The notes under the pieces are model-generated. The model was not told where the DNA came from. It saw only the letters and a program-made list of their open reading frames with translations, and ran no database searches. The translations under genes were made by a program, and so were the position numbers. From a virus, in the IMG/VR virus record IMGVR_UViG_3300027777_000023, positions 96,001 to 160,000 of that record: a stretch of 64,000 bases of DNA; one strand, written 5' to 3'. Position 1 is the stretch's first letter. Each line of letters starts with the position of its first letter. Shown here piece after piece: positions 4,929-64,000 of this stretch.

Positions 4929-4932
4929 CCAT

Positions 4933-5190: not shown

Positions 5191-5197
5191 ATTAAAT

Positions 5198-5274: not shown

Positions 5275-5285
5275 ATTTAAAATTT

Positions 5286-41607: not shown

Positions 41608-41689
41608 AGTGTTTGGGTTGATGGTTGAGTGTTTATCCTAGCAAAAAACACCCATGTGATGACAGCAAATTAAGTTTTTTAAGGACGAT

Positions 41690-42348: not shown

Positions 42349-42377
42349 TTGTATTTCTACCAATTCTTCATTAATAT
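42349..42377 (+). promoter_or_regulatory. Sigma70-type promoter (TTGTAT-N17-TAATAT), leaderless to RNAP beta-middle gene
   Basis: ATG at 42385 lies 7 nt after the -10 box. Confidence 0.6.
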
Positions 42378-42384
42378 AGCTGAT

Positions 42385-43077
42385 ATGAGCCTAAGTAAAC
42401 AAGAAAAAATAACTAAATTAAAAGAATATTTGCGAAACATGAAGTTGGACGCAGGTGTGATGGGTAGAACTATGGGCACGCAAAGTTCGTTTGTTACTCC
42501 GCAAATCATGCTGGATGCCTCTAAAAAATTGCTTAATGTGTTCAGCCGCAAAGAGGCTCCAGATGATCGGGATAATGTGGTGTTTTCTAAATTTCTTGGA
42601 CCTGAGGATTATCTTAAAGAACATATCGAACACGACGCAGGTAAGGTACAATTCAAAGCTAAAAGTAAACTAAGGCAGAAACGTAATCTTAGCTGGTTGC
42701 ATGCCGGGTTCTTTACACCTCAAGTTAAAAGTGTGTTTGTTGGTAATAGCCTTGCCCAAAACATCGAAGGCGTTAATCCTATGGAGCAGTATATGCTGGC
42801 CCATAAAGTAACGAAAATGGGTATGGGAGGGATTGGAAGCACCGAAGCTATCCCAGACAGTTCTCGAGAAGTTAACGAGAGTCAGTTTGGTTTGCTGGAT
42901 CCTATCCAAACAGTAGAGGCGACTACTATCGGTGTGGTGAACTTCTTTGTGCACAATATCCGTAAAGGTGCTGACGGTAAACTGTATAGGGAGGTAATTG
43001 ACAACAGTACAGGGAAGCACGTATGGATCGACCATCAAGAGTTTTTAAGCTCTACGATTGACGTACCTGAGCACTAA
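42385..43077 (+). CDS. rpoB: RNA polymerase beta subunit, middle fragment (fork/rifampicin region)
   Basis: NPMEQYMLAHKVTKMGMGGIG and SSREVNESQFGLLDPIQTVEATTIGVVNFF correspond to bacterial NPLSEITHKRRISALGPGG and [30 protein letters not shown]. Confidence 0.85.
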   Translation: MSLSKQEKITKLKEYLRNMKLDAGVMGRTMGTQSSFVTPQIMLDASKKLLNVFSRKEAPDDRDNVVFSKFLGPEDYLKEHIEHDAGKVQFKAKSKLRQKRNLSWLHAGFFTPQVKSVFVGNSLAQNIEGVNPMEQYMLAHKVTKMGMGGIGSTEAIPDSSREVNESQFGLLDPIQTVEATTIGVVNFFVHNIRKGADGKLYREVIDNSTGKHVWIDHQEFLSSTIDVPEH

Positions 43078-43547
43078 CGTTGAATTGATGGGTCTAATAA
43101 ACCCTGCACCCAAATGCGTTCTGATTCTTCAGCACCAGGTACACGGTTTTCGTAATATAATATACAGTAAACTTTTCTTGTTCCATTATTAGTTACCGTA
43201 AAACCTCCATCATATTTTTCTAGAGCAAATAGCCCGTTGGATGTAACGTACTGTAAGCCTATTTTAAAGACTACTCCGTATGAACAATCGGGTATATCAA
43301 TATTAAATTTTTCCTTAAAAGTGCAGGCGTCCATAGAATAATTGCCGCGCGGCACGCCACCAAAAATTGTAATATTGTCCCTCGCGGGAACATCTTCCGC
43401 CAAAGCTGCTGCTGTCAGATAACTTTCGGTACTTGGATCATAGGTCTGTAATAGAAACGTGTATACCTCCTCTTCTTCAAGGTGACCATAAATCGTGCTG
43501 ATATCTATAGATATAGATCCACCGCAGTCGCCAAATAGTACAATCAT
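43074..43547 (-). CDS. Hypothetical protein (157 aa)
   Basis: ATG ORF coupled to the upstream large gene. Confidence 0.7.
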   Translation of the reverse strand: MIVLFGDCGGSISIDISTIYGHLEEEEVYTFLLQTYDPSTESYLTAAALAEDVPARDNITIFGGVPRGNYSMDACTFKEKFNIDIPDCSYGVVFKIGLQYVTSNGLFALEKYDGGFTVTNNGTRKVYCILYYENRVPGAEESERIWVQGLLDPSIQR

Positions 43548-43551
43548 AAAA

Positions 43552-45897
43552 TTATTCTGGCTCAGTCATTAGTACGTAAGCAGTCTTTTGTGTGCCGTCA
43601 ACACACACGCTGATCTGCTGGAAAGAAACTTGCTTGCCTTGCGGAGGCGTCAAATCAGCGTAGCCTCCGTCCGATGTTGTGATGGTTACATTTTCGCCGT
43701 CCATTTTTACAGAAAATCCTGACGGTGATGTTACCTCCATTGTACCATTACTGCCATCCAGATTGACATAACCGCCACCTGCACCGGTTGCATTAATTTC
43801 TCCTCGTTCAGCATCCAGTGTCACTACGTTCCCGCCAGTATTAGTTACAGTGATCTTGCCGTTTTCCGCATCCAGCAGTATGGTATTGTTTGCATCTGCT
43901 ATTGTCAACCTAGGTCCAGTGGCGTCGTAGTGAAATTTGTTATAACCGTTAGCTGTCTCAAATATTATATCCTTGGTGTTGATATCTGCACGAAAATACG
44001 TACCATCCCCATATCCTTCCGTCTCGTTTAACTGAATTGCACCGCATTCTACTGTTGAAGAATTGTTGTAATCATCACTCAAGTGAACTTTTTCAGGTCT
44101 CAAATACAATTTACAGGTGTCGTCGTTAGCCTGTATGCCGGCATCAGGCGTTATTAAAAGTCCATAGCTGGTGACCTGCATCATGACTGTGTAATCGGTC
44201 TCACTGCAGCCAGTAGGCAGAATACTATCTGTGTATATAGTATGCATGCGCATCTTTTTCTCACACATATGTATATACGGAGGGCATCGTATGTTTTCGC
44301 AGCAAGGCCGTGGCGGAATTTCGATCATATCCACAAACAACGATTTAAGTGTTAGCGATCCACATCCAACACCTCCACCTCCACCTCCACCACCACCACC
44401 TCCACCTCCACCACCACCGCCAGATACCAGCGAAAGCACACCACCACTTAAACTTAATTGGAGTCCTCCATCAATATTTACTACACTCGTACTTACAGCA
44501 CTCACAGCGCATCCCACGCTGCCCAGATCAAAGTTCATATCATCGAGCTTTATCTTGAGTGACTGGCTACATGCTCCGTCTGACCTAGGGGCACCACCAC
44601 CACTAAAACTAACTGTACCTCCAAGCGCCTGAGACTGTCCTCTGTTATTTAGCTTAACTGTAACTGTCCCCGGGTCCAATTCAGCAGACATACCCATAGA
44701 ACCACAACCAGAAAAGTCTGCACCGCCAGATAATTCAATTCCACATAAAGCGCCATCGCTATTTGCTTTTGCAGAAAGCTTTAGATTATTTTTTTTAACG
44801 ATAGGTCCAGTAAGATTAACTCCACCTGTTACCTCGATACCGGAGCAGCCTGAAAACTCCAGATCTCCACCAAGCGAAAGACCGCAACCACTACTTACAG
44901 GCGTTAACTGTAAGGTGTTCTTTTTTACAATATTTCCTCTTATATTTAAACTGTTGTTGGCTGTTACTTCCTGACAACCATTTATCTCCCAATCTCCGTC
45001 AATACTAAATCCGCAGTTTGGTGTAGTGTTGACGTTTATTGTTTGAGAAGATTTTTTAACTGCTGTGCCGTGTATGTTTAAATTTGCTGCCGCCGTGAAA
45101 CTGGCGCAAGCATCGATATCCAGCAAGCCCTGGATGGATAGTGCGCAGTCTGGTGTAGAGTTTGGCGTAACCTTCCAGTCACTTTTTTTAATGCTTTGTC
45201 CCTGTGTTGTGACAGAGATCTTGGCATCAAAACTTTCACATGCGTCAAATTTTTGAAGTGCAATGAGTCCGCCTAGTGTGATTCCGCAATCTGGTGCCGA
45301 TGTGGACCTAAGCGTTATATTAGAGGCCGAGCTTATACCCTCACCAAACACTATATTTGAGACTGCTGAAAATGTCTCACAGGCATCCACATTAATATTA
45401 CCTATCAGCACAGTTCCACAGTCAGGAGCACTCGACGGTGTCAAGGTTAATGAACCTTCAGCCGCACCATTAAAAGTTACAGTGCTGGAACTTGTGAAGG
45501 TCTCACATGCATTAACCGCCAATAATCCGGACAATGTGATGCCGCAGTCACCTAGACCTGAATCTCCGGTCGTGGGACCTTTAGGAGATAGCACCAAATA
45601 ACTATTTTTAGTGGCGTTTGTTGTCTGTATGTTTACATCGGCCGAAAGATGCTCGCACGCCAAAAATTTAAGGTTGGGTGGATTGTATACCGGAGGTAAT
45701 GGTATTACATCAGGAAAAGAAACGCTGCATGCCTCAAGCAAAGGCAACAAAGGTTTGACAGGTATGCTTAAAGTTGACGGTGGAGGTAAAGCACAACTAG
45801 CTGGTTGGTCAGCAGGAAGTACAGGAACATACTCAGCAGAAAATTCGGAACTATCACCACCCAGGTGTATTGTAGTTGGGTCTATTTTTGGCGCCAT
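43552..45897 (-). CDS. Cys-repeat structural protein with Gly17 linker and C-terminal beta-repeat (spike/fibre-like)
   Basis: Seven ~42-45 aa repeats PDCG..L.G...AC; 17 consecutive Gly codons at 44371-44421; C-terminal strand repeats ILLDAENGKITV/VTLDAERGEINA/VNLDGSNGTMEV. Confidence 0.6.
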   Translation of the reverse strand: MAPKIDPTTIHLGGDSSEFSAEYVPVLPADQPASCALPPPSTLSIPVKPLLPLLEACSVSFPDVIPLPPVYNPPNLKFLACEHLSADVNIQTTNATKNSYLVLSPKGPTTGDSGLGDCGITLSGLLAVNACETFTSSSTVTFNGAAEGSLTLTPSSAPDCGTVLIGNINVDACETFSAVSNIVFGEGISSASNITLRSTSAPDCGITLGGLIALQKFDACESFDAKISVTTQGQSIKKSDWKVTPNSTPDCALSIQGLLDIDACASFTAAANLNIHGTAVKKSSQTINVNTTPNCGFSIDGDWEINGCQEVTANNSLNIRGNIVKKNTLQLTPVSSGCGLSLGGDLEFSGCSGIEVTGGVNLTGPIVKKNNLKLSAKANSDGALCGIELSGGADFSGCGSMGMSAELDPGTVTVKLNNRGQSQALGGTVSFSGGGAPRSDGACSQSLKIKLDDMNFDLGSVGCAVSAVSTSVVNIDGGLQLSLSGGVLSLVSGGGGGGGGGGGGGGGGGVGCGSLTLKSLFVDMIEIPPRPCCENIRCPPYIHMCEKKMRMHTIYTDSILPTGCSETDYTVMMQVTSYGLLITPDAGIQANDDTCKLYLRPEKVHLSDDYNNSSTVECGAIQLNETEGYGDGTYFRADINTKDIIFETANGYNKFHYDATGPRLTIADANNTILLDAENGKITVTNTGGNVVTLDAERGEINATGAGGGYVNLDGSNGTMEVTSPSGFSVKMDGENVTITTSDGGYADLTPPQGKQVSFQQISVCVDGTQKTAYVLMTEPE

Positions 45898-46241
45898 TAA
45901 AGCATTCTATTAAATACCAGATAGAAAAACAATATCAAAGGTGCAGACACCAATGCGACAACCAATTGAGGAGCCACACACAGACCCGCAACTAATCCTA
46001 ACCAAAAGCTCAAACAAACAGGACAACAAATTAACCTAACAAAAAAACTATCTCGATAGTATTCATACAAAAAATCTGTATAGGTGCCAGCATATCCCTC
46101 ACCGTGCAGCTTATTGTACTCTGATATGTGTAGAATGCGTGACATACCACACAAAGTTATATATTCTGTAAACGCATTAGTGCGCAACCACACCAACAAA
46201 AAATAACCTAGAGCAAGGGATATGCAGACGAGCTCAAACAT
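45897..46241 (-). CDS. Small membrane protein with CPxC motif (DUF1360-like)
   Basis: ATG at 46241; RLICCPVCLSFWLG. Confidence 0.6.
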   Translation of the reverse strand: MFELVCISLALGYFLLVWLRTNAFTEYITLCGMSRILHISEYNKLHGEGYAGTYTDFLYEYYRDSFFVRLICCPVCLSFWLGLVAGLCVAPQLVVALVSAPLILFFYLVFNRML

Positions 46242-46242
46242 A

Positions 46243-46503
46243 TTAAACCTGTGATTGTTCGTTAGTGTTTTCCATTTCAGTAATTCGCTTTTCAAGCTCA
46301 ACCAATAAGTTTCGTTGAGCAATGGTGGCAATACGCATGTTTTGTAGGTTGTTGACCTGCTCACTAAATTTGCGAATATTTTCTTCCTGCTCTTTCAGGT
46401 TGGTTTCAGCCTGGCGAAGACCGTCAGCGATTAAAAGCAAGGATACATGCTTAGACTCAGTTTCGGTTTCGGTCACAATGGGTAATTCTACTCGTTCACT
46501 CAT
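46243..46503 (-). CDS. Coiled-coil hypothetical protein
   Basis: 86 aa heptad-rich ORF. Confidence 0.7.
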   Translation of the reverse strand: MSERVELPIVTETETESKHVSLLLIADGLRQAETNLKEQEENIRKFSEQVNNLQNMRIATIAQRNLLVELEKRITEMENTNEQSQV

Positions 46504-46521
46504 AATTTTATCGGTTTAGTT

Positions 46522-46680
46522 TTATTCTAGTGCGTCGTTTTCGGTTAGCAAATCTTTTATCTCGGCCTGGATTCTTTTTACTTCTTCGTTATGGGCTTTG
46601 ACAGTATCCCGTTTGTTCTTCTTGGCAATTTCAAGTTCAACCACAAGGTTGTAGATTTTTTCTTCTTTAGTTGTTTCCAT
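46522..46680 (-). CDS. Small coiled-coil protein (52 aa; not in ORF track)
   Basis: METTKEEKIYNLVVELEIAKKNKRDTVKAHNEEVKRIQAEIKDLLTENDALE*; upstream TTGCGT-N16-TATAGT. Confidence 0.65.
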   Translation of the reverse strand: METTKEEKIYNLVVELEIAKKNKRDTVKAHNEEVKRIQAEIKDLLTENDALE

Positions 46681-46772
46681 GTTTACTGCGCTAAGTTGTT
46701 CTTGTTGATCGGTTGAGTACCTAGCGTTATATCACTATAACATTTCTAAAAAGGTACGCAACAATTTTTAAC

Positions 46773-46808
46773 AAAAAAAGAGGTGCGACGAATAAACATC
46801 GCACCTCT
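46773..46808 (-). terminator. Intrinsic terminator (minus strand)
   Basis: AGAGGTGCG/CGCACCTCT stem plus T7. Confidence 0.85.
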
Positions 46809-46837
46809 CTTATAACTAGACTGATTTAACCTGATGG

Positions 46838-47506
46838 TTAGGATTGCAACGCAGCCAACTGCGCGGTGGTCAACGCCGCACGCTGAGTGGTCGTCAAGGC
46901 CGCCACCTGAGTGGTCGACAATGCAAAGAGCTGTGCCGTAGCAAGGACGCTGAGATCGCTTGTTGTGATAGCTGCAACTTCTGCGGTGCTGAATGCTGCG
47001 ATTGTGCTGGTAGCAAGCGCGACGGCCTGCGTTGTTGTGATCGTGGTGACGTTTTGTTTAGCTACCTGCACTTCTGCATCAGCAGCTGCTACTGTGGAGG
47101 ATGCGAGTACAACTGTGAACAGTTCTCCTTCGCCAGAGTTATCTCCAGTGGTGGAACCTACACGACCTGTGCCGCGCACGTATTCAATAATATAGCTAAG
47201 TTCTACCGTACCAGTGACACCGGTAGGAATTTTTAGCGTGAACGGACTGTTCTTGTCAGAGCCAGGATATACATCAAGAACCGCAGGAGCTTGAGGATCG
47301 TGGGCGACTACAGTTGCACGAATAATGCTCTTGGAAGGAACGTCGCTGAACACGATGGAATCTCCCAACGCATAGTCTGTGGGAGAGATAACTCCATAGG
47401 ATACCTGAAGCTTTTCATAACGCGAACTCAATAGTCCGCTAATGTCATAGCCGCCGTTTGTGCGGTCCGTATCTACTGCTACTTTTTTTACTTTAATTGT
47501 TGCCAT
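46838..47506 (-). CDS. Probable structural protein with C-terminal (L)TTxQxAAL repeats
   Basis: AQLFALSTTQVAALTTTQRAALTTAQLAAL. Confidence 0.75.
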   Translation of the reverse strand: MATIKVKKVAVDTDRTNGGYDISGLLSSRYEKLQVSYGVISPTDYALGDSIVFSDVPSKSIIRATVVAHDPQAPAVLDVYPGSDKNSPFTLKIPTGVTGTVELSYIIEYVRGTGRVGSTTGDNSGEGELFTVVLASSTVAAADAEVQVAKQNVTTITTTQAVALATSTIAAFSTAEVAAITTSDLSVLATAQLFALSTTQVAALTTTQRAALTTAQLAALQS

Positions 47507-47657
47507 AATAATTTTCTATTTTTTGTTTGTTGTTTACTGCATATAGCAATAGGCACCCAAGCCGCAACAGGAACTTTTGGTAAATTCCCAGAGGATCGTT
47601 GATCTACTCCATCGCTACGTTAATTATTGTCTATAGTTCTAGGTTAGGCAAGACAAA

Positions 47658-48062
47658 TTATATCCATTCTGGGAAAGATACTCGATTTGGTCTGGGCTCA
47701 AGCCGATAGTCAATAAATAGCTCTTCATCTTTTCTTATATCTCTGTTAGCGATTATCTTATGCATTGTTAGCTTCCAATCGCAGTTGGGTTCTCTTGAGT
47801 GGTTGATATAGCTGAACTTGCTATACTTATCGCTAGTGATGCACTCTTCATCATTCAGCATCACGTACGGATTTTTACGAATTTGCTCCTCAGTCAAATC
47901 AACATATCTTGTTTTGTACCAATCTTTTGGAAACATTCTGTAGTCTATCACTAGATCATCTTTGCTTATGTCTTTTGCAGCAAATAAACCAAACCCAGCC
48001 ACAGGGCTATGTTTCACATAGGTGAAAGGTGCATCATCGTTGTCTATGATTATCTCGTTCAT
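47658..48062 (-). CDS. SET-domain protein (lysine methyltransferase fold)
   Basis: SPVAGFGLFAAKDI; YINHSREPNC; IANRDIRKDEELFIDY. Confidence 0.92.
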   Translation of the reverse strand: MNEIIIDNDDAPFTYVKHSPVAGFGLFAAKDISKDDLVIDYRMFPKDWYKTRYVDLTEEQIRKNPYVMLNDEECITSDKYSKFSYINHSREPNCDWKLTMHKIIANRDIRKDEELFIDYRLEPRPNRVSFPEWI

Positions 48063-48721
48063 TAGTCTTTAATTAGTAGGCTATAGAGTTTGTCTATCTC
48101 GTCTCCTTTATACTGCACACGATTAGCGTTGTAGATTTGCTCTCCCCATGCAGCTTTAATTGCTCCGTCAGAGATGCCTAGATCATGAAGGATGCCGTAC
48201 AATTTAACCTGAGAATTTCTAATCATTAAGATAAACAACTGTTTGTCAGGAAGAAACAAAATACGACCACTCTGACCTGTACGAGCCTCAGGATTGATAT
48301 GTGCTTCAGGGATACCGTCTTGACGAATCCTTGAGTATATTCCAGGAAGAAGTCTTTGCTGATTTACGCTTTCGTATTCTGAGCCATTATAAATAACAGT
48401 ATTATGATTAGTAACATATGGTATGTGAGCTATAGTGGTGCTCTTACTTTCCAGAACTTTACCAGAATTTTTGTGTACCAGGTCTATGGTTCCTTTCAAA
48501 GCTACCGTGAGATCCTTTTTATCTAGTACAGCTTGTTTCTGGTGTGTGGTCGTGATATGAGGCAAATCCATCTTCAGATCTCGTACCTGAAGCTTGTGGT
48601 CCGTTGTTTCGATAGCGTTTATTTTTTTACCGAACGCAGCGACTGCTGTATCAAACAGCATATGCCTCAACTTCTCAGGATCGAAAAACGATCTTGTATT
48701 TTCTGGAGGTTTGCTTTGCAT
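48062..48721 (-). CDS. rpoB: RNA polymerase beta subunit, N-terminal fragment
   Basis: IAHIPYVTNHNTVIYNGSEYESVNQQRLLPGIY corresponds to [33 protein letters not shown]. Confidence 0.85.
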   Translation of the reverse strand: MQSKPPENTRSFFDPEKLRHMLFDTAVAAFGKKINAIETTDHKLQVRDLKMDLPHITTTHQKQAVLDKKDLTVALKGTIDLVHKNSGKVLESKSTTIAHIPYVTNHNTVIYNGSEYESVNQQRLLPGIYSRIRQDGIPEAHINPEARTGQSGRILFLPDKQLFILMIRNSQVKLYGILHDLGISDGAIKAAWGEQIYNANRVQYKGDEIDKLYSLLIKD

Positions 48722-48722
48722 T

Positions 48723-50549
48723 TTAATCTTTTAACAATCTTTCCAAATAGGCTTTGTTTTGCTTGTCCTCGAGCATCTTTTGCATCTCAGGATATTTTGA
48801 AGTAATTTCAACTTCTTTCTCACTGGGTTTGCTTTCTGCCCTACCTTCTTCCTCAGCTTTATCAAGGACCTTGTTGATTGCTCTGGTTTGAATGGCTTTG
48901 GACACTGCGTCAGCTACTCCCGCCTCTTTGAGAGAAGCAAACTTGGCGTCACTGAGAGAGTTCACATCTCCAAGTCTGTTAAAGAAAGCTGGCGTGCGCC
49001 CTTGTCCTCCTCCACCAACATTGATGTTGATGTTTTGACCTTGTCCTCCTGAGCCACGATTACGATCTCTGGTCATTAGATAGGCTAGTAAGGCGGCACC
49101 TCCAAGAGGAAGCAGATTATTACCCAGCGCATTATCTCCCAACAGTCCTGTACCTACCGCTTTAACGCTATCGTTAGCTTTGCCCAGTGCTCCGGCGACA
49201 CCATGATAAGCCTTGGAAAGTGTATTGTACGCTTCTGGAAAATTATGATGTAATACACCTTTAACGAATCCACGATCAGCTACATCGTGAGTTAAATCAA
49301 TACCGCCACTGACAGTATTGCCTACTATTTTTGCTGCGTCTCCAACAGCGCCCTCAGCTTTAGCGACCACATCACCTACCGGTCCAGGCAGTGTAGTTTT
49401 TGCTTGTTGTTGGTAGTCTGCAGTGCTTGTAGGTATTTTAAATGTTTGGCCCAAGACTGTGACTTCTCTTCCGGGCATAGAAGGATCTTGGGATATTCCT
49501 CCAATATTGAACAACTGTTTGCGTTTTTCTTCATCGGCTGCTTGTTGATTTTGCAACTTTATGGCTTGCTGCAGTCCTGGAGGCAACGCCGTTGAGGTTG
49601 GGGTTGGGGTCGAGGTTGAGGGTGCGGCAACAGTGGTAGTAGGTCTAGTAGGTGCTGTGGGAGTACTCAACGGCTGCTGTGCCTGTGACGAAGTATAAGG
49701 ACTTCTAGGATTAGCGTTAGGGAAAGTTGCAGCCAAGTATTCATTATTTGGGTCAAATGTGGGAAATGTTGGGGGTGTTACTTTGGTGTAACCTTGCCCT
49801 GTCGACCTCAGAGGATCATACCCAGCAGCTGTGGCTTTTGCCTGTGCGGCTTGATTTGCATTGTAGTCGGCCATTTGTCGTTGATACTTTGGAAAGTGAT
49901 CTAGAGTAAATTTTCGCGCTTCCTGAAATTTAGCGTTGTGCTGCCTAAAAGCTTCCTTTTTTTCAGCCATAAAATCATCCATTTGCTGTGGATTGCCGGT
50001 ACGCCTCAATGCGTTTTCAGCTTTGCCATAGTAATCAGTTAATTCATTGTCTCGAGCACGAGCGGCAATATCTACACGATTTACAACGTCTCCGTGAGTT
50101 CTTTGTCGAGAAAAAAGGTCAGGACTGTCAAAAAATCCAGTATGTAGTTGGTCTGCGCGCATATCTTCTGGTGGTGCAGTTGGTGATGCAGCTAGAGGCG
50201 CAGTTATAGGCAGGGTTGGTGGTCGGGTTGGAGGTATTTTAACTGCAGTATCTTTTAGCATATCAAGACCCTGATCCATGTAATCTTTTTTCCTCTTAGC
50301 CTCGCGCGTTATTTTGGTTGCAATAGTCTCAGGAGCAACCTGAGCCGCAGGCATAGCCTCTGGTGAGGGAAATGAAGGTTTGGGTATAGCGGTTGGTTCT
50401 AACGGCGTGGACCATGACGGGACGGCTGAAAATCTGCGCTGCTGCTCACGCTCCCGATCTTCCAACTGTTGGAAATAATCTGGGGATTTTGCTTGTTTTT
50501 CAAGACCATCATTAACGCCTTTTTCAAGTTCAGTAAAATCTAATTGCAT
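48723..50549 (-). CDS. Putative internal virion protein (K-x-A motifs, Pro/Thr/Gln-rich)
   Basis: GVNDGLEKQAK; AKFASLKEAG; hydrophobic LLPLGGAALLAYL. Confidence 0.7.
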   Translation of the reverse strand: MQLDFTELEKGVNDGLEKQAKSPDYFQQLEDREREQQRRFSAVPSWSTPLEPTAIPKPSFPSPEAMPAAQVAPETIATKITREAKRKKDYMDQGLDMLKDTAVKIPPTRPPTLPITAPLAASPTAPPEDMRADQLHTGFFDSPDLFSRQRTHGDVVNRVDIAARARDNELTDYYGKAENALRRTGNPQQMDDFMAEKKEAFRQHNAKFQEARKFTLDHFPKYQRQMADYNANQAAQAKATAAGYDPLRSTGQGYTKVTPPTFPTFDPNNEYLAATFPNANPRSPYTSSQAQQPLSTPTAPTRPTTTVAAPSTSTPTPTSTALPPGLQQAIKLQNQQAADEEKRKQLFNIGGISQDPSMPGREVTVLGQTFKIPTSTADYQQQAKTTLPGPVGDVVAKAEGAVGDAAKIVGNTVSGGIDLTHDVADRGFVKGVLHHNFPEAYNTLSKAYHGVAGALGKANDSVKAVGTGLLGDNALGNNLLPLGGAALLAYLMTRDRNRGSGGQGQNININVGGGGQGRTPAFFNRLGDVNSLSDAKFASLKEAGVADAVSKAIQTRAINKVLDKAEEEGRAESKPSEKEVEITSKYPEMQKMLEDKQNKAYLERLLKD

Positions 50550-50550
50550 A

Positions 50551-51822: not shown

Positions 51823-51823
51823 G

Positions 51824-52204
51824 TTAATCTTTCTTTTCTTCTTTTGTACCGTAGATGATAAATACTCTAAAGCTTCCCTGCGGGGTCCAGGTGTCTTTCC
51901 AGAGAGTGATCATATACTTTTTGTTATTCATTAATTCGTTAAGCATGTCCTGATCTTTCTGCTGTTCAGGATCAAGAATGATGTTCTTGAATGTGAACGC
52001 ACTCATGTCTTGCGCTCTGGGACGCTTTTTAATTCCTTTTGCTGTTTCAAAAGCGTCAATGACTGCCTCAGGATCAAATCCTTTGTTGGTTACCTCATTG
52101 CGCACATTGCGAGGCGTGACTGAAGCGAGCAAGTCTGCTGCGCTAGAGCCAAAGTCAAAATGTTCTGTTTCTCTTGGTTCAATTCCTTTGTTAAGTAAGT
52201 CCAT
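51824..52204 (-). CDS. Hypothetical protein (126 aa)
   Basis: ATG ORF within a tightly packed operon. Confidence 0.7.
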   Translation of the reverse strand: MDLLNKGIEPRETEHFDFGSSAADLLASVTPRNVRNEVTNKGFDPEAVIDAFETAKGIKKRPRAQDMSAFTFKNIILDPEQQKDQDMLNELMNNKKYMITLWKDTWTPQGSFRVFIIYGTKEEKKD

Positions 52205-52721: not shown

Positions 52722-52724
52722 AAA

Positions 52725-53096: not shown

Positions 53097-53098
53097 AA

Positions 53099-54226: not shown

Positions 54227-54229
54227 ACT

Positions 54230-57320: not shown

Positions 57321-57570
57321 ACGTGCCTGTACTAGATATATACTTTGAGAGAGGTTAAAGGTCACTATGTTTTTGCTTGTGGGTACTAGAGAGAATTTAT
57401 AGGGTGAGTCTTTAGTTTAGAGAAGGGGATTGGTTAGTGAGTTAGTAGAGGGATAAGGGAGGGTATATAGAACAACTATCAACAGTATAGGGAGTACATG
57501 GTTTTTTCGGGAGGTGCTTGTTGCTTCGCTGGGACAGTTGTGTTATAGTTCCCTTAACGTAACCCTACTT

Positions 57571-57906
57571 ATGCGCCCCATAGAAAAGATAAAAAGTATT
57601 ACCATACGGAACAAACGCTACAAGTTTGTGGTAAAAAAACTGCGACATGCCAGAGGCAGAACAGAACACCCAGACACTAAAAACAAGACAGTGTATATAG
57701 ACTCTAGAGAAAAAGGCAAAGCGTTGCTGTCCACGCTTATTGATGAGCTCATACATTGCGCTATCTGGGATATACAGAACGAGATCGTGGATGAGATCTC
57801 TGACGGCATGGCCGATGTGTTGTGGCGCTGTGGACTGAGGTTTACAGACGAGACGGATGAAACCCTGGAAAGCACAACATCAACATATGTCTCTAAAAAC
57901 CTTTAA
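57571..57906 (+). CDS. Small zincin-like protein with DExxH in place of HExxH
   Basis: STLIDELIHCA; ATG at 57571 after TGTTATAGT. Confidence 0.55.
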   Translation: MRPIEKIKSITIRNKRYKFVVKKLRHARGRTEHPDTKNKTVYIDSREKGKALLSTLIDELIHCAIWDIQNEIVDEISDGMADVLWRCGLRFTDETDETLESTTSTYVSKNL

Positions 57907-60883
57907 ATTTGCCCTAGTTCACGGCAAGCTTACAAAAGTGCCAAAGTCGCAGAAGTCGAAATATAGCATGATCGACCCTTCGCACTTCTTCAGCCCTGTA
58001 ACTAATCTTATTCCAGGACTCAGCTCAGTATCAGGTGCACGCGTACTAATCGGTGACAAGTCTTCGCTGCAGGCCATGACACTCACCAATCGTGAGGCTC
58101 CTCTGGTGCAGGCAGCGCCCAAAGCCGGAGGCGGAGACAGTTTTGCAAAGCAGTTTGGTAAACTTGTGAGTATTTCTGCAAAGACTGACGGCGTGGTATC
58201 TAAAATCGAGGACGACCACATGATCGTCAAAGACTCGGCAGGTAAAGAACATCATCACGACCGCTACAATAATTACATCATAGGGCGTGAAAGCTATATT
58301 CACCATACACCTAACGTAAAGGTTGGCGATAAAGTTAAAGAAGGACAACTACTGGCAACATCCAACTACTCTGACCATGAAGGCACATTATCATTAGGGA
58401 TGAACCTTAAAACAGCCATCATGCCGTTCAGATCTTTGAATTTCGAAGATTCTTTGGCCATATCTGAGTCAGCAGCTAAAAAATTGGAAGGGGAGCAGCT
58501 TATTCCTGTGCGTATGGAAATTGCTAGAGGGATCTCTACCGACAAAGACAGGTACATCTCTTTATTTCCAAACAAATACTACAACGACCAGCTCTCACAC
58601 ATAGACAGTCATGGTGTGGTGAAGAAAGGTACCGTATTGAAACACGGAGATCCGATCATCCTAGCTTTTCAACCTAAAACACTAAAGTCCCTTGATATCC
58701 AGCTAGGCAAACTGTCCAAAGTTATTCGTAACGCTTTCTCAGACATTTCAGTGGCCTGGGAGTATGAGTATGAGGGTGTGGTGACGGATACTTCAGCCAG
58801 TGGCGGTCTTGTGGCTGTGACAGTAAAAACAAAAAGACCCATGAGTCATGGCGACAAGCTCAACATGCCTTTTGGTGCAAAAGGAGTAGTAAGTATTGTT
58901 CCAGACACGCAAATGCCTCAAGGCGAAGACGGCAAACCTGTGGATGTGTTGTTGAATTCCATGAGTATCACTAGTCGTGTTGCTCCGGGTTTGGTGAATG
59001 CAATTGGTTTGGGTAAGCTGGCCCAAAAGCAGGGCAAAGCACTTACAATGACAGGTTTCACCGAAGGTTCAGCTGTCCAGAAAGTGATTGATATTTTGGA
59101 CAAGCACGGAATAAAAGATACCGAGAAGCTTTATGATCCTTTGTCTGGTAAGCACGTTGAAGTACTCACAGGTCCTCTGTATTTTAATCGTTTGCACCAT
59201 ATCGCAGAAGACAAGATATCCGCAAGATCGGCGGCCACGACGTATGATATCAATATGCAGCCTTCAAAGGCAGGCTCGCACGAGAAAGCTAAGCGTATAG
59301 GTAATTTGGCAACAACTGTTGCCCTATCCAACGACGCCAAAGCAGTGCTCAGAGATATTGCCACAGTCAGAGCAACAAAGAACGACGACTTTTGGACAGC
59401 TTTGAAGCTCGGTTTGCCGCCACCTCCACAAAAAGTACCGTTCATATTTGATAAATTTATAGGTCACCTCAAGGGGGCTGGTGTTAATGTACAGCAGGAT
59501 GGATCTAAATTTCATATCATGCCGCAGACAGATAAAGATATTGTGGCGATGTCTCAGGGAGAAATTAAAGAACCTCTAACGTACAAAATTAGAAAAGATT
59601 CTCTTATCGAAGAAGAACACGGGCTTTTTGATCCGTCGTTGGTGGGTATCCATGGCGATAATTTTAATCATATAAGCTTAAACCATAGAATTCCTAATCC
59701 TATGGCCGAGGATCATCTGCGCAAGCTTTTGAAGATGACCAAAAATGCGTACGAGGAAGCAGCCGCATCAGGCTCGATCGAGAAAGACCTTAAAAAGATC
59801 AACGTTGACGAAAAGATCGCAGAACTCAAAAAGGTCATAGGGCTAAAAAAGAAAACCGGTAGAGACGACGCAATTAAATCTCTCAGCTTTCTAACGATGC
59901 TAAAGCAGCACAATCTAAAGCCTGAGGATATGTTGTTGTCTAAGATCCCGGTGATTCCTGCGCAATATCGCCCTGTTATGGTTCAGGGGGATCAGGCACT
60001 GACTGCAGACGTTAATGAGCTATATAAGGATTTAATCATGGTGAATAAATCTTTTGGGGCAGCCAAAGATTCTCCTGACGTTGATCCGGAACACCTCAGT
60101 ACAGCAAAGAAGCAGATATATAATGGTGTTAAAGCTGTTTTTGGTTTAGGTGGACCTATCAACCAGAAGAGTATTGAGAAAGGCTACAAAGGATTATTGG
60201 CTTCTGCTCTGGGTTTGCAGGGAGGCTCGGCCAAAGAAAGTATGTTTCAGGCAAAGGTGGTTAATAAGCCTATTGATCTTGTAGGTCGAGCTGTTTTGCT
60301 GCCGGACTCTAATCTAGATCTAAATCAAAGCAGTATTCCTCAATCTGTAGCGTGGAGCATTTATTCCCCTTTTGTGATTCGGCGTATGGTTCGCATGGGA
60401 ATTCCAGCAACGAAAGCCAGAGAATATCTAGAACACAAACACCCATTAGCGTTACAGGCACTGCATGAAGAGATGGCTGATCGTCCAGGAATCGTTACGC
60501 GAGATCCCCAGCTGTCTAAATACAACTTCCAGGGAATGTATTTGAAGATGAATCCTGATCCCAAGGATTTCTCTATCAAACTAAACCCTCTCGTGTTTAA
60601 GGGATATGGGGCGGACAGTGACGGCGATCAACTCAACGTACAGGTTCCTGCATCAGAAGAAGCAAAGGAAGAAGTCAAGGAGAAGTTATTGCCGGAAAAG
60701 AACTTAATTTATCACCGCACTTTCTCACCAATTTACACTCCCTCGAATGAAGCTGCAACAGGCTTATTTGCTGCTAGTTTTGAGGATAAGAAAAATCAAC
60801 CAAAGAAATATCACTCAGAGCAAGAAGTAGTTAGAGACTTTCTTGCTGGTAAATTAGATATTGGTGACAGGGTAGAAATATAG
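57887..60883 (+). CDS. RNA polymerase beta C-terminal / beta-prime N-terminal fusion carrying the catalytic DxDGD
   Basis: beta: LSLGMNLKTAIMPFRSLNFEDS, GDKL..FGAKGVV, GPLYFNRLHHIAEDKISARS. beta': IPVIPAQYRP, KPIDLVGRAV, RDPQL, LNPLVFKGYGADSDGDQLNVQVP. Confidence 0.93.
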   Translation: MSLKTFKFALVHGKLTKVPKSQKSKYSMIDPSHFFSPVTNLIPGLSSVSGARVLIGDKSSLQAMTLTNREAPLVQAAPKAGGGDSFAKQFGKLVSISAKTDGVVSKIEDDHMIVKDSAGKEHHHDRYNNYIIGRESYIHHTPNVKVGDKVKEGQLLATSNYSDHEGTLSLGMNLKTAIMPFRSLNFEDSLAISESAAKKLEGEQLIPVRMEIARGISTDKDRYISLFPNKYYNDQLSHIDSHGVVKKGTVLKHGDPIILAFQPKTLKSLDIQLGKLSKVIRNAFSDISVAWEYEYEGVVTDTSASGGLVAVTVKTKRPMSHGDKLNMPFGAKGVVSIVPDTQMPQGEDGKPVDVLLNSMSITSRVAPGLVNAIGLGKLAQKQGKALTMTGFTEGSAVQKVIDILDKHGIKDTEKLYDPLSGKHVEVLTGPLYFNRLHHIAEDKISARSAATTYDINMQPSKAGSHEKAKRIGNLATTVALSNDAKAVLRDIATVRATKNDDFWTALKLGLPPPPQKVPFIFDKFIGHLKGAGVNVQQDGSKFHIMPQTDKDIVAMSQGEIKEPLTYKIRKDSLIEEEHGLFDPSLVGIHGDNFNHISLNHRIPNPMAEDHLRKLLKMTKNAYEEAAASGSIEKDLKKINVDEKIAELKKVIGLKKKTGRDDAIKSLSFLTMLKQHNLKPEDMLLSKIPVIPAQYRPVMVQGDQALTADVNELYKDLIMVNKSFGAAKDSPDVDPEHLSTAKKQIYNGVKAVFGLGGPINQKSIEKGYKGLLASALGLQGGSAKESMFQAKVVNKPIDLVGRAVLLPDSNLDLNQSSIPQSVAWSIYSPFVIRRMVRMGIPATKAREYLEHKHPLALQALHEEMADRPGIVTRDPQLSKYNFQGMYLKMNPDPKDFSIKLNPLVFKGYGADSDGDQLNVQVPASEEAKEEVKEKLLPEKNLIYHRTFSPIYTPSNEAATGLFAASFEDKKNQPKKYHSEQEVVRDFLAGKLDIGDRVEI

Positions 60884-60886
60884 CTG

Positions 60887-60914
60887 TTGACATCCCACCT
60901 ATCCTTTGTATACT
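60887..60914 (+). promoter_or_regulatory. Sigma70 promoter TTGACA-N16-TATACT, leaderless
   Basis: Perfect -35; ATG at 60921 is 6 nt after the -10 box. Confidence 0.75.
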
Positions 60915-60920
60915 GGAGGG

Positions 60921-62351
60921 ATGCTAGACATTCAAGGAACACTATCGCGGTTTGGTTACGACCCAGGAACGCTAAAGAGATACTCAGAGCGTCCTGTGCT
61001 GATATTATGCGATTATTGTGATAAATCGCACGAAACACTGTATTGCAGATACGCCAATAATAATAACATGACCTGCGGCAGCAAAGACTGCAGGAACAAG
61101 TTAACCGAGAAAACCTGTCTCGTTAAGTATGGTACAAAGCACCACCTAGCTTCTGAGGAGGTGAAGGTTAGACGAAAGCACAGCAATATAGCTAAGTATG
61201 GTGTTGCGCATATCGCTCAAGTGGTTGAAATACGTGAGAAGATAAAGGAATCTAATGTGTGTACTTATACAGAAAAAGACGCAGACGGTAATTCCGTGGT
61301 TGTGGAAAAAATCAAAAAAACACATAGAGCCAGGTACGGTGTAGATTTCGCCATCAACAGAGCAGACATTCGAGAAAAGGCCAAAGCTTCAACCAAACTC
61401 AGTTGCGGTGTTGAAAACCCATTCAACTCATCTACGTGTATGCTGAAAGCAGTGGAAACTAAAATAGCGCGTTACGGTACAGCTCATCCAAGTAATTGTT
61501 ATGGTAAGGCGCAGCAAGAATTGGCAGATTGGCTTTTGGCAATTTCAGGTAAAGAGTTCAAAGCAGATTTTAAAATACTCAAAGGAAAAGAAATTGATTT
61601 GTATAATGAGGAGCTGCGGTTAGGTGTAGAGTATTGCGGCTTATATTGGCATACAGAAGATTCAAGAACACCTCGCGATAGGAATTATCATATAGATAAA
61701 TTTAAAAGAGCTAAATCTCAGAATGTAAGACTTATCACAGTGTTTGAAGATGAGTGGGTATATAGACAGACTCAGGTTAAGAATTTTTTACGCTCTGTGC
61801 TAGGTGCAAATGAACATGTGGTTTATGCTAGAAAGTGTAGTGTGCGTGAGATAGTCGGCAGAGATGGTAGAGCTTTTTTTGACGCGCACCATATTCAAGG
61901 AGCCAACAATCTTGGTAAATATTTTGCAGGATTGTTTTATGAAGACAATCTATTGGCTGTGATGAGTTTTGGTCGCCACCATCGAAAATCTTCTCAATTA
62001 GTGTTGGATCGCTTTGCCGTTAGAGATAATTATAGCGTTGTCGGCGGAGCATCTAAACTATTTAAGTTTTTGCTCAGCTTGAGTGGTGTTGAAGAAGTTG
62101 TTAGTTGGTCAGACAACCGTTGGAGTTGGGGAGACGTGTACGTTCAGTTAGGGTTTCAATTAGAGGAATCTCTGGGACCGGACTACAGCTATGTAGATTT
62201 TTCCCACAATTGTCGAAGGTTATCCAAACAGTCTCAGCGCAAAAGTAAAACTAATTGCCCAGCAAACAAGACCGAAAAAGAATTTTCTAACTCTAAAAAC
62301 TTGCATAGATTGTGGGATTGCGGCAAGCTGAGGTGGATGTTTCGCAAATAA
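60921..62351 (+). mobile_element. Hef-like homing endonuclease (Zn finger, KYGV-type repeats, PD-(D/E)xK and C-terminal domain)
   Basis: CDYC/CGSKDC; KYGT, KYGV, RYGV, RYGT repeats; EIDLY...GVEYCGLYWH; HIQG...VGGASKL...SDNRW. Confidence 0.75.
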
Positions 62352-62377
62352 TCTTTATTTTTACGTTGTTTTAAGTT

Positions 62378-62578
62378 ATGCTTGAGGAAAATATATGGTT
62401 ACAGCTGAGTGATGACGAAAAATTCACTGAGCTGGAGACCTATTTAAACGAGCTTATTGAGATAGAGAAAGGTTGTCATGAACTAAGTAATACTGAGGGT
62501 CAGGGCAAACTCCCAAACATTAAAAAAACTTTAAACGACAAAATCTTTAAAATAATAGAACTGGAAAACGCAACATAA
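62378..62578 (+). CDS. Small hypothetical protein
   Basis: ATG ORF of 66 aa. Confidence 0.6.
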   Translation: MLEENIWLQLSDDEKFTELETYLNELIEIEKGCHELSNTEGQGKLPNIKKTLNDKIFKIIELENAT

Positions 62579-62579
62579 C

Positions 62580-63458
62580 ATGAAAATCTCAGAATTACTA
62601 GAAGACTACAGAAAGATTTCAAAAACAGCTAACGTCAAAAAGCTCACCAAGAAGGCGTTTATACCTAACCCTGACGTTATGGCTCAGCAGCAGCAAGCAC
62701 AACAACCTCAGCAAGGTGGTGCGCAGGGTCAGCCACCACAGCAAGGACAACCACAACCTCAGGGTGGCGGACAACCTCCGGCTCCTCAAGGCCAACCCCA
62801 GCCACCTCAAGCTCCTCCGCAACCGCCGCAGGCTCCGCAGCAACCTCAAGGACAACCGCAAGCGCAAGGTGGTGGTCCTATGGAACAGCTCATGGCGGAG
62901 GTTCAACAACTTTCCCCGGAAACACAACAACAGGTAGCTCCACTCATTCAACAGCTGCAGTCGATGCCTCCAGAGCAGCGAGACCAGCAAGCTATAGCAG
63001 TACTTCAGCAGCTCGAGGCACAACAACAACAGCAAGGCGCACCGCAGGGTGGAGGTATGGAGACGCAAGCCTCGATTGAAGATGAATATGCCGCAGCTAT
63101 GCAACAACAGGCTATGGGAGGTCAGCAAGGACAACCACAACCACCGCAACCGCAAGATATGCAACAGCAGGCCGCCCAGGACGCCGGTCAAGCAGAGGCT
63201 TCTGCGGTGGAAGCAAAGAATGAACTGGATAATGTGAAGGTCACCCTTACTGTGCGCGAACTTCTCGATTTGGTGGGCAAGGGCACTGCCACAGCATCAC
63301 TGCTCAAGGTCAAACAGCTTGCTGATACACATCAGCAGAAGATGGATCAGAGCAAACAAAAAGCAGACGCACAACAGCAACAGCAGACACAACAACAACA
63401 GCAAGACCAGCAGGGTATGATGGGTGGCGGAATTTACTCAGCACCGATGGGTAATTAA
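62580..63458 (+). CDS. Gln/Pro-rich low-complexity K-x-A protein (scaffold-like)
   Basis: SKTAN, TKKAF, then QP/QQ tracts. Confidence 0.75.
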   Translation: MKISELLEDYRKISKTANVKKLTKKAFIPNPDVMAQQQQAQQPQQGGAQGQPPQQGQPQPQGGGQPPAPQGQPQPPQAPPQPPQAPQQPQGQPQAQGGGPMEQLMAEVQQLSPETQQQVAPLIQQLQSMPPEQRDQQAIAVLQQLEAQQQQQGAPQGGGMETQASIEDEYAAAMQQQAMGGQQGQPQPPQPQDMQQQAAQDAGQAEASAVEAKNELDNVKVTLTVRELLDLVGKGTATASLLKVKQLADTHQQKMDQSKQKADAQQQQQTQQQQQDQQGMMGGGIYSAPMGN

Positions 63459-63469
63459 TTGTACATGAT

Positions 63470-63880
63470 ATGCTAGACCTAACCAAATTGGCCACCTATC
63501 TAGACTCGTTTGAGAAAGGTGACCCTAACTACGACAGGGCCTGCTTCATAAAGAGTAAGTTGGCTACTGATTTACAGGATCGCGAAACCATCAACAACGG
63601 AGAAGAAGATGATCTTACTGATAATGACATCACCATGGCTACTCCGGATCAACAATCCTCGAGTAATCAGGAAGGTGAGATAATGGATGGTGTTTTCCAG
63701 GAATTAGACGCACTAAATCAAATAAAAGAAGAAAAAGAGGAAATTAAGCTGGATCCTAGACAAGAAGTCACAAGAAACCCTAATCTTAATTCTGCCTCGC
63801 CTGAAGATTTTGGCAACAACAGCCTAAACACAAAACAAGCCACATTATTTCAAATACTGCAGAAAAAACTTAATAAGTAA
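63470..63880 (+). CDS. Acidic K-x-A protein
   Basis: TKLAT, SKLAT, TKQAT. Confidence 0.7.
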   Translation: MLDLTKLATYLDSFEKGDPNYDRACFIKSKLATDLQDRETINNGEEDDLTDNDITMATPDQQSSSNQEGEIMDGVFQELDALNQIKEEKEEIKLDPRQEVTRNPNLNSASPEDFGNNSLNTKQATLFQILQKKLNK

Positions 63881-64000
63881 TGGCTACCACAACAGTAGGA
63901 CATATTCTGTTGAAGTTTTATTTGCCTCAGCAGTTTCAGCATCTGGTACATGATAAAATACTCGATAAAAAGGGTATATCTGTGTTGTTTGCTGAATTGG
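63880..64000 (+). CDS. rpoC: RNA polymerase beta-prime C-terminal fragment (start only, runs off right edge)
   Basis: MATTTVGHILLKFYLPQQFQHLVHDKILDKKGISVLFAEL aligns with bacterial beta' [34 protein letters not shown]; only 40 codons visible. Confidence 0.7.
   Translation, partial: MATTTVGHILLKFYLPQQFQHLVHDKILDKKGISVLFAEL

Follow-up and report, generated by a model that had tools for sequence, protein, structure and literature searches.

In phages of the phiKZ/AR9 type, one form of the RNA polymerase is packaged in the virion (PMC7598289, PMC7824862), and in purified particles of Salmonella phage Arash (OQ632216.1) the polymerase proteins Gp206 and Gp216 and the sigma factor Gp10 were among the proteins most detected (PMC10585845). 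The Arash paper labels the two polymerase proteins just beta and beta′ and leaves unmentioned that one of them is a fusion (PMC10585845). Arash gp206 (1525 aa) holds in one chain the regions that are divided among three genes, here called A, B and C, in the phage described below, while Arash gp216 (606 aa) corresponds to a fourth, gene D.

The window analysed here, a stretch of 64,000 nucleotides, belongs to the 190-kb genome of an uncultured phage, which was recovered as a metagenome-assembled contig and is 97% complete. By profile and protein alignment, four open reading frames, all at the positions given in the original prediction, are jointly colinear with one bacterial-type beta plus beta′ and amount to about 2063 aa distributed over four scattered genes. 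Genes A (beta-N) and B (beta-middle), which are on opposite strands, are separated from gene C by 9 and 15 kb. Only one RNA polymerase set is present in the whole genome, with one match each for Rpb2_6, Rpb1_2 and Rpb1_5, and a T7-type RNA polymerase was not found in it. Searches of the 97%-complete genome for alpha (PF01000, PF01193) and omega (PF01192) gave no match, with all controls detected; very divergent analogues are possible.

Both double-psi barrels are carried by gene C (57887-60883, plus strand), the beta-C::beta′-N fusion subunit, whose 998 aa, read from a single open frame, match Rpb2_6 (3e-47), Rpb1_1 and Rpb1_2, the last of these exceeding the gathering cut-off. Its PDB matches are to beta at 1.5e-37 and to beta′ at 2e-34. 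Mapping by profile onto Salmonella RpoB and RpoC, with E. coli-type residue numbering, equates residues 7-537 with beta 634-1339 (383-537 aligning with beta 1179-1339), residues 540-589 with beta′ 18-65 and residues 619-998 with beta′ 173-550. The junction has no linker: of the 1342 residues of beta the chain keeps those up to about 1339, and two residues on it enters beta′ at about residue 18, within a single alignment block with Arash gp206 and the Vibrio D69 proteins. Profile mapping and cysteine count place the junction, with the segment that stands in for the beta′ zinc-binding domain (GLFDPSLVGIHGDNFNHI...), at 59495-59740 on the plus strand. Deletion of this domain had been proposed from the sequence, and indeed gene C encodes no cysteine and 29 residues (590-618) replace beta′ 66-172.

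The active-site residues that had been described as kept are invariant across a 63-sequence family alignment. In translation, the beta-barrel motif GDKLNMPFGAKG (GDK...GAKG; 58850-58885, plus strand) supplies the catalytic lysines K324 and K332 of gene C, and the beta′-barrel Mg-binding motif GADSDGD (60608-60628, plus strand) supplies the Asp triad D910, D912 and D914. Otherwise conserved motifs have drifted in the window's clade, with ETPEG changed to QTVEA, NADFDGD to GADSDGD and, as had been noticed earlier, GEME to GNLA. The claimed reduction of the lobes also holds, the beta2 lobe being about 115 residues shorter and SI2 absent. On the 5′ side, a small conserved ORF (57514-57906, plus strand) overlaps the start of gene C by 20 nt; it has no PHROGs family match, its C-terminal protein sequence is kept in relatives, and it and gene C are probably transcribed together and coupled in translation.

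The remainder of beta is encoded by genes A and B. Gene A (48062-48721, minus strand; 219 aa), the beta N-terminal subunit, was recognized by alignment to Arash gp206; it covers beta1 in its N-terminal half and runs into the beginning of the shortened beta2 lobe, approximately E. coli beta 1-226, with residues 88-130 aligning with beta 115-157. It is third from last in a minus-strand operon, before SET-domain and ALTTAQ-repeat genes. Gene A has no Pfam RNAP match, and taken alone its similarity to cellular beta is weak, with E of about 1e-3 to 4e-5 (PDB beta matches at 1e-3). Gene B (42385-43077, plus strand; 230 aa; Pfam Rpb2_3), the beta-middle subunit, is a solitary plus-strand gene amid minus-strand genes. 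Its counterpart is roughly E. coli beta 385-620, which takes in beta1 in its C-terminal half together with the fork and the region of the rifampicin pocket; gene B residues 43-211 align with beta 426-601. A TTG at 42301 was rejected as its start, relatives keeping the ATG at 42385.

Gene B is preceded by a candidate promoter (42349-42384, plus strand) made up of TTGTAT at 42349-42354, a 17-nt spacer, TAATAT at 42372-42377 and 7 nt to the ATG. The same layout occurs at 7 of 206 gene starts, compared with 5 of about 5600 other ATGs, and in 17 relatives both hexamer blocks and their spacing are kept in a 45-nt divergent intergenic region. We infer that the site acts as a promoter, and from its spacing an mRNA with no leader, or almost none, would result.

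Gene D (63880-65730, plus strand; genome positions 159880-161730), the end of which lies outside the window, encodes the beta′ C-terminal subunit (616 aa; Rpb1_5 at 3.6e-15). It corresponds to E. coli beta′ from about residue 569 onward, including the bridge helix, the trigger-loop region and the second zinc site; residues 3-355 align with E. coli beta′ 571-955, and cysteines are found at 228, 285, 297 and 300. The beta′ cut thus lies between about beta′ 550, where gene C stops, and about beta′ 569. On its 3′ side, gene D is followed by homologues of the Arash structural proteins gp218 and gp222 and of the major capsid protein, and the neighbours are in the same order in Arash. Between C and D lies a free-standing homing endonuclease gene (60887-62351, plus strand; PHROG 3339 'homing endonuclease', 4e-91; DUF7487) that has a promoter-like site of its own (TTGACA-16-TATACT, 60887-60914). 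This insertion between C and the next gene is missing from 13 of 13 relatives examined, and the endonuclease is not part of the polymerase. Three further genes, encoding 66, 292 and 136 aa, also sit between C and D (62378-63880, plus strand), and their synteny with C and D extends to 12 IMG/VR loci and one 55%-identity relative. They gave no lead in Pfam, PHROG or Atlas, and their products are possible accessory subunits.

It is most likely that the four polypeptides assemble into one polymerase core, which is predicted to be active. The reading that we prefer as a whole, with a probability of roughly 0.75, is that they constitute a noncovalent, sigma-dependent core of bacterial type, probably virion-borne, that arose from a broken ancestral A+B+C gene. 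In such an enzyme beta would be rebuilt from A, B and C up to residue 537, and beta′ from the remainder of C together with D, with the covalent beta/beta′ link in C keeping both catalytic barrels on the same chain. It would do without alpha and omega, the zinc ribbon of beta′, SI2 and the greater part of the beta2 lobe. Since the transcription signals are separate, with gene B having its own promoter, gene A at the end of a minus-strand operon and C-D on the plus strand, stoichiometric co-expression of the chains is an assumption.

Promoter specificity would probably come from the phage's own sigma70-family proteins, two of which are encoded in its genome: one at genome positions 4785-5489, with Sigma70_r3 and HTH matches and similarity to Arash gp10, and one at 62575-63153, with regions 2 and 4. 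Putative promoter sites of the form TATAAATAG/TGGTATAATA, which the original prediction put forward as sites that the enzyme may read, are present, none of which adjoins the polymerase genes, and TGGTATAATA is found in 8 copies on the plus strand against 0.4 expected. The polymerase itself would probably be produced late, loaded into the capsid and delivered by injection, such that phage transcription starts independently of the host polymerase; with Arash only about 27-32% identical, this virion placement is an analogy. An active polymerase that instead stays out of the virion, being made after infection from host-transcribed genes for middle or late transcription, in the manner of the phiKZ/AR9 nvRNAP, is unlikely but deserves consideration. 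The sigma70-like -35/-10 candidate promoter of gene B could be read by the host holoenzyme, and host-type extended -10 sites, which that holoenzyme could read equally well, occur elsewhere in the genome; in addition, there is only one polymerase set, so that a single enzyme must serve whichever phase the host enzyme does not. However, Arash is the sole cultured relative for which there is proteomics, and there the counterparts of these chains and a sigma factor are among the most abundant particle-associated proteins; C and D belong to a head-gene module whose downstream synteny matches that of Arash.

We also considered that A, B or both are decaying remnants of a broken gene, leaving a working enzyme of C and D only, or none, which is highly improbable. 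Both genes are small, displaced and on different strands, A is the one without a Pfam RNAP match, and some beta motifs in B have drifted, but their frames are intact, with starts and stops kept in every relative examined. Homologues of gene A measure 217-221 aa with both ends kept in 11 distinct relatives, gene B is constant at 230 aa with its candidate promoter conserved, and mean column identities are 77% (A) and 87% (B); more than 120 clusters contain stand-alone homologues of gene B of 230 aa (50-91% identity). Gene C homologues of 995-1001 aa likewise share the same ends (394 matches at E<=1e-10). In these comparisons dN is 0.09-0.43 (0.09-0.24 for gene B), far under a dS that is saturated, and dN/dS is 0.03-0.05 where computable; the genes are under purifying selection. 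The genome is one metagenome-assembled contig, but an artefact of assembly or frame calling behind the junction or the splits is scarcely credible, as one open frame spans the same junction in cultured Arash and in Vibrio D69, D148 and D181 and the junction recurs in hundreds of independent assemblies; for the four-gene layout, chance and assembly error are excluded because the same genes, with boundaries, order and strands unchanged, recur at 55-88% identity in independent IMG/VR contigs among the relatives examined.

The preferred reading, a functional core descended from a broken gene, is further illuminated by how the pieces fit the longer chains of relatives. Arash gp206 is matched piece by piece, by gene A at residues 36-222 (1e-16), gene B at 217-469 (8e-25) and gene C at 480-1524, and gene D matches gp216 (3e-70). 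Aligning 15 sequences places both cuts, A|B and B|C, within linkers that are short and variable, with nothing missing, and the A|B cut is at the site of the E. coli beta insert i4, known as 'dispensable region I' (PMC2939025). Against the bacterial subunits, the family profile scores 1e-126 with beta and 1e-86 with beta′. The family takes in at least 150 clusters of metagenomic proteins, most of which have the single-chain A+B+C form; in a few relatives of the phage family (P0252) the fusion is complete, in one chain of about 2030 aa. The window's four-gene clade (support 1.0) is nested among single-chain A+B+C forms. As judged from these sequences, the four-gene form is a well-supported derived clade and a further-split version of the family's two-gene polymerase. 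The ancestral A+B+C gene would have broken at two variable surface linkers, and the pieces would then have moved to give four genes. We found no description of this four-gene form in the searchable literature.

Several known polymerases share single features with this arrangement. In phiKZ/AR9, as here, beta and beta′ homologues are cut into several polypeptides, beta′ shortly past the double-psi barrel, and there is no alpha or omega (PMC7598289, PMC7824862). Those phages nevertheless have two paralogous sets, virion and non-virion, where the window's phage has one; their beta and beta′ pieces are never fused together, whereas gene C joins both; and they use gp68 or gp226 and no sigma70-family factor, in contrast to the two sigma70-family genes here (PMC7598289, PMC7824862). 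Their sequences are also far more divergent from cellular enzymes than those of the window's family, whose profile matches bacterial beta so strongly. The original prediction was right to set the layout apart from phiKZ/AR9: the window's phage has one gene set, a fusion bearing both barrels on one chain, sigma70-family genes and no alpha or omega found. Natural rpoB-rpoC fusions in Helicobacter and Wolinella, as outlined in the citing source (Zakharova et al. 1999, cited in PMC1557499), make a beta/beta′ fusion plausible. In that outline the beta C-terminus is likewise in frame with the beta′ N-terminus, but within a single chain of about 2900 aa, and alpha, omega, zinc sites and lineage inserts are present, whereas here only beta-C and beta′-N share a chain.

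In cyanobacterial gamma/beta′ and plastid beta′/beta″, the break in beta′ is likewise between domains, in the same region past the catalytic barrel, and residues 22-24 of gene D align with residues 8-11 of those C-terminal subunits (D 24 equals cyanobacterial beta′ 11). By this mapping the window's cut is about 15-30 residues earlier, and common descent of the split is unsupported. The crAss-like gp66 and YonO also have both barrels on one polypeptide, and gp66 of crAss-like phages is packaged in the virion. For polymerases of the crAss gp66/YonO type, HMMs reveal no similarity to the cellular subunits beta and beta′ (PMC7481178), and most peripheral domains are missing from them, in contrast to the recognizable, nearly complete beta and beta′ found here. 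The mReC phages (Weinheimer and Aylward 2020, PMC7481178), whose beta and beta′ branch deeply, are likewise metagenomic tailed phages with bacterial-like beta/beta′ detected by Pfam and COG models; their study required separate beta and beta′ matches of at least 800 aa each and reported no fusion or fragmentation (PMC7481178).

Finally, Arash and Vibrio D69, D148 and D181 belong to the same family as the window's phage, at 27-32% identity over full length. They share with it the seamless beta::beta′-N fusion, the beta′ cut after the barrel, the missing beta′ zinc ribbon, the presence of phage sigma genes and the position of polymerase genes beside head genes; presence in the virion is known for Arash only, and for the window's phage shared head-gene synteny alone points to it. 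The beta-C/beta′-N fusion, regarded at first as an architecture peculiar to this phage, is instead the hallmark of a large family that includes Arash gp206, the three Vibrio proteins and at least 150 metagenomic clusters. In the Arash type, the fused chain (about 1450-1530 aa) carries beta in its entirety and there are two genes, whereas here beta-N and beta-middle stand apart and there are four; because these two are separate genes, the polymerase is a variant of the Arash type rather than a plain member. From the sequences compared, the window's phage stands out in that its beta is cut further, into three dispersed genes, a derived condition common to one clade.

Matches to Pfam domains, solved structures or aligned bacterial subunits were found at all four genes of the predicted RNA polymerase, confirming the observation of four pieces made in the original prediction. 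The beta-N gene, A (48062-48721, minus strand, 219 aa), gave no Pfam polymerase match and aligns to bacterial beta at and around residues 115-157, and the beta-middle gene, B (42385-43077, plus strand, 230 aa), carries Rpb2_3 and aligns to beta 426-601 in E. coli numbering. The beta-C/beta'-N fusion gene, C (57887-60883, plus strand, 998 aa), holds Rpb2_6, Rpb1_1 and Rpb1_2 in one frame, with Rpb2_6 matching residues 111-471 of a longer scanned ORF starting at 57857 (3e-47). Compared with solved structures, its first half matched bacterial beta (1.5e-37) and its second half bacterial beta' or cyanobacterial gamma (2e-34). The beta'-C gene, D (63880-65730, ending outside the window; 616 aa; Rpb1_5), aligns to E. 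coli beta' 571-955, and the four chains together comprise 2063 aa. The motifs quoted in the prediction were all found, namely GADSDGD (60608-60628) and GDKLNMPFGAKG (58850-58885) in C, GNLA at the GEME position, and GLFDPSLVGIHGDNFNHI, which stands where the beta' zinc ribbon would be expected next. The proposed deletion of the beta' zinc-binding domain also held, as a beta' stretch of 107 residues including the four-cysteine ribbon is reduced to 29 in C, which contains no cysteine. Cysteines 228, 285, 297 and 300 of D are spaced compatibly with the second zinc site of beta'. An AlphaFold2 model of C from a 17-row alignment (mean pLDDT 60, pTM 0.35) was too poor to interpret, and in a complex prediction of C(1-545) and B with A as partner a control scored too close for the result to weigh either way.

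All four genes are conserved among relatives. Loci in IMG/VR numbered 14 for C, at 67-82% identity, and 23 for B, and the contigs share one gene layout: B on the plus strand, A on the minus strand, then C, three small genes and D on the plus strand. With duplicates removed, lengths in relatives were 217-221 aa for A, 230 aa for B, 995-1001 aa for C and 616-620 aa for D. The C-terminal residues of all four proteins are conserved, and in most relatives their ATG starts lie a few codons past the nearest upstream stop. Relative to the window sequence, dN was 0.09-0.43 and dS was saturated in nearly all pairs, with dN/dS of 0.03-0.05 in the three pairs that allowed computation. More than 120 clusters (50-91% identity) consist of stand-alone B proteins of 230 aa, and there are hundreds of C-type proteins of about 997 aa. 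As judged from these comparisons, A to D are real genes, neither debris nor artefact.

Furthermore, the pieces are colinear with a single-chain protein. A, B and C lie one after the other along gp206 of the Salmonella phage Arash (1525 aa), covering residues 36-222, 217-469 and 480-1524; the counterpart of D is Arash gp216, and the Vibrio phages D69, D148 and D181 have the same build. In an alignment that took in twelve single-chain homologues from metagenomes, A ends and B begins in the same short, variable linker, B ends and C begins in another, and no residues are lost or duplicated across these boundaries. Rejoining of the pieces by split inteins or trans-splicing was rejected, since the single-chain alignment leaves only a few residues at the A, B and C ends and no room for intein halves. 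Nor did a simple inversion moving portal and beta-N together survive, since the 608-aa gene beside A is not the portal, whose homologue lies about 48 kb away.

We mapped the family profile onto Salmonella RpoB and RpoC, whose numbering is shared with E. coli. Residues 7-304, 308-396 and 383-537 of C correspond to beta 634-933, 1049-1138 and 1179-1339 (of 1342), and residues 540-589 and 619-998 to beta' 18-65 and 173-550. Because C 308-396 resumes at beta 1049-1138 after beta 933, SI2 is missing from C, and with beta ending at C 537 and beta' beginning at C 540, the fusion is therefore seamless. The A/B cut falls where the profile skips about 115 beta2-lobe residues (beta 240-395 against 40 profile positions), which in E. 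coli numbering is the position of the insert beta-i4, known as 'dispensable region I' of E. coli beta (PMC2939025). The B/C cut lies at about beta 620-630, and the C/D cut roughly 15-30 residues ahead of the point at which beta' is split in cyanobacteria (gamma/beta') and plastids (beta'/beta'').

With C as query, an exhaustive HMMER search gave at least 150 cluster representatives, with 35-69% identity among the matches listed, and the 150 listed were classed by BLASTP against the window's pieces. A, B and C were united in one chain in 110 of the 150 listed and C stood alone in 26, while 10 of the 150 scored for B and C, several of these having a long undetected N-terminus or perhaps being truncated. 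All four pieces shared one chain in the remaining class (4 of 150 listed, such as P0252 with 2032 aa). The metagenomic proteins P0252, P0227 and P0253 carry the whole enzyme from beta-N through beta'-C in a single chain whose length is about 2030 aa, rising to about 2570 aa where inserts are present, and the full beta::beta' fusion of the P0252 type resembles that of Helicobacter (PMC1557499). Many family members span 1800-2900 aa with several aligned stretches, and some contain intein or LAGLIDADG Pfam domains. We built a FastTree phylogeny from the C-equivalent region of 57 representatives, choosing those in which that region was too short to hold an intein. Under a midpoint root, the window's clade formed one group with support 1.0 among forms uniting A, B and C, and other C-only forms were placed elsewhere; its deeper placement was poorly supported (0.31) and the root is a midpoint only. 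The simplest reading is that the ancestral form united A, B and C, that cutting occurred several times, and that the four-gene form was derived within this large family.

The source is a single virus contig of 189,602 bp, estimated by CheckV to be 97% complete, of which the window spans bases 96001-160000. No cultured phage proved close at the DNA level in a megablast with 20 kb of sequence. The genome encodes one polymerase set only. Alpha and omega were not found in genome searches with positive controls, and a search for a T7-type polymerase, run without a positive control, gave no match. Two sigma70-family genes are present, one at genome positions 4785-5489, resembling Arash gp10 with a region 3 match and a helix-turn-helix, and an ECF-like one at genome positions 62575-63153 with regions 2 and 4. 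D is followed by homologues of two structural Arash proteins, gp218 and gp222, and of the major capsid protein, arranged as in Arash. In purified Arash particles, Gp206 was the most detected protein, and Gp216 and the sigma factor Gp10 were abundant too (PMC10585845).

In addition, we examined the signals from which these genes might be expressed. B is a lone plus-strand gene; 45 nt lie between its ATG and the start of the gene upstream, which runs the other way, and this spacer holds TTGTAT, a 17-nt spacer, TAATAT and 7 nt before the ATG, an arrangement conserved in relatives. Transcription from this putative promoter would begin at or beside the start codon. Across the whole genome the same layout precedes 7 of 206 gene starts compared with 5 of about 5600 other ATGs, an enrichment of about 38-fold; the seven leaderless-type sigma70-like -35/-10 pairs include those at 1783 (minus), 5961 (plus), 42385 (plus) and 45897 (minus). 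Shine-Dalgarno sequences are missing from most genes, and start contexts are A/T-rich and of the TATG type. A conserved small ORF upstream of C overlaps the C start in the window genome, and in several relatives a promoter of B's type precedes C. The extended -10 sequence TGGTATAATA occurs in eight copies, all on the plus strand (4665, 6925, 7456, 13436, 33579, 37171 and two upstream of the window), against 0.4 expected; TATAAATAG lies exactly 18 nt upstream of three of the eight, and none is near the polymerase genes. Judged by sequence, the B-type and the TGGTATAATA/TATAAATAG sites may each be read by the phage or by the host polymerase.

A lies within a minus-strand operon, followed by a gene for a 134-aa SET-domain protein (47658-48062; Pfam SET, 1.2e-16) that starts at the last base of the A stop codon and appears to be co-transcribed with A. 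The last gene of the operon encodes an ALTTAQ-repeat protein (46838-47506, minus; Pfam, 8.6e-16), and a strong intrinsic terminator with a 15-bp stem closes it (46811-46776, minus). Just upstream of B, 40636-42145 (minus) encodes a ribonucleotide reductase small subunit (Pfam, 1.7e-47) and a dCMP/cytidine deaminase (1.4e-17). Between A and C, searches of PHROG, Pfam and Atlas gave no leads. A free-standing homing endonuclease gene (60887-62351, plus; PHROG 3339, 4e-91; DUF7487), 23 nt past the C stop, has a promoter-like site of its own that is close to consensus, TTGACA-16-TATACT. None of the 13 relatives compared has this gene, which suggests a recent insertion; in relatives, inteins sit within the polymerase genes instead. 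Three further genes between C and D (62378-63880, plus; 66, 292 and 136 aa) are retained in the relatives examined, one of which is 55% identical. They had no family match in PHROG, Pfam or Atlas, and most of the 292-aa protein is disordered in its Atlas model (pLDDT 0.46). It is possible that they encode polymerase accessory or packaging factors.

By profile alignment, B has E, L, K and T at the positions matching E. coli D516, H526, R529 and S531. Three of these are classic rifampicin resistance positions, and a rifampicin-insensitive enzyme is therefore a reasonable prediction.

Taken together, the sequence comparisons indicate that the four-gene polymerase is a new form within a phage polymerase family that is widespread but has hardly been recognised. 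In cellular RNA polymerases the two large subunits are almost always separate chains, assembled on an alpha dimer. The phage family has joined the beta/beta' seam, dropped alpha, omega and one zinc site, and kept sigma, and the window's clade tolerates two more cuts in beta, one at a site dispensable in E. coli and one at a second linker. We tentatively propose, with a probability of roughly 0.3, that the covalent beta/beta' tether replaced the alpha dimer as assembly platform, so that the remainder could be freely cut and scattered and would still self-assemble with a phage sigma factor into a capsid-delivered holoenzyme. If true, the two-, three-, four-, five-gene and fully fused forms would reflect free cutting once both barrels share a chain. 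The cuts provide a natural set of split-site experiments on what holds a multisubunit polymerase together, in a compact, predicted sigma-dependent enzyme that could in principle be reconstituted from four small genes. Host-independent early transcription is probably a strategy of this widespread group of 170-210-kb phages, which fall just under the 'jumbo' threshold.

Sequences of the fused-and-split family are already public, labelled in current databases 'hypothetical', 'biotin carboxyl carrier protein' or plain 'beta subunit', and the layout was not found described in the literature searched, which covered few subscription journals. The Arash paper names the proteins beta and beta' and leaves the fusion unmentioned (PMC10585845); the mReC study demanded separate beta and beta' hits, each of at least 800 aa, and reported no fusion. 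Reviews of phage polymerases leave this phage group out, and a 2026 jumbo phage review does not mention such enzymes. The enzymes of phiKZ and AR9 comprise two sets, with no beta-beta' fusion and no sigma70-family factor (PMC7598289, PMC7824862), whereas we found one set, fused beta and beta', and sigma70-family genes. The original prediction of a layout unlike phiKZ/AR9 is thus upheld, but the fusion it took to be part of a different architecture is common to a large family that includes Arash and Vibrio phages D69, D148 and D181. Unlike crAss gp66 and YonO, single-chain two-barrel enzymes without profile-level likeness to cellular subunits, this family matches bacterial beta at 1e-126 by profile. 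If the tether proposal is correct, the family would add a third lineage to the multisubunit polymerases of phages, one that depends on sigma, alongside phiKZ/AR9 and crAss/YonO.
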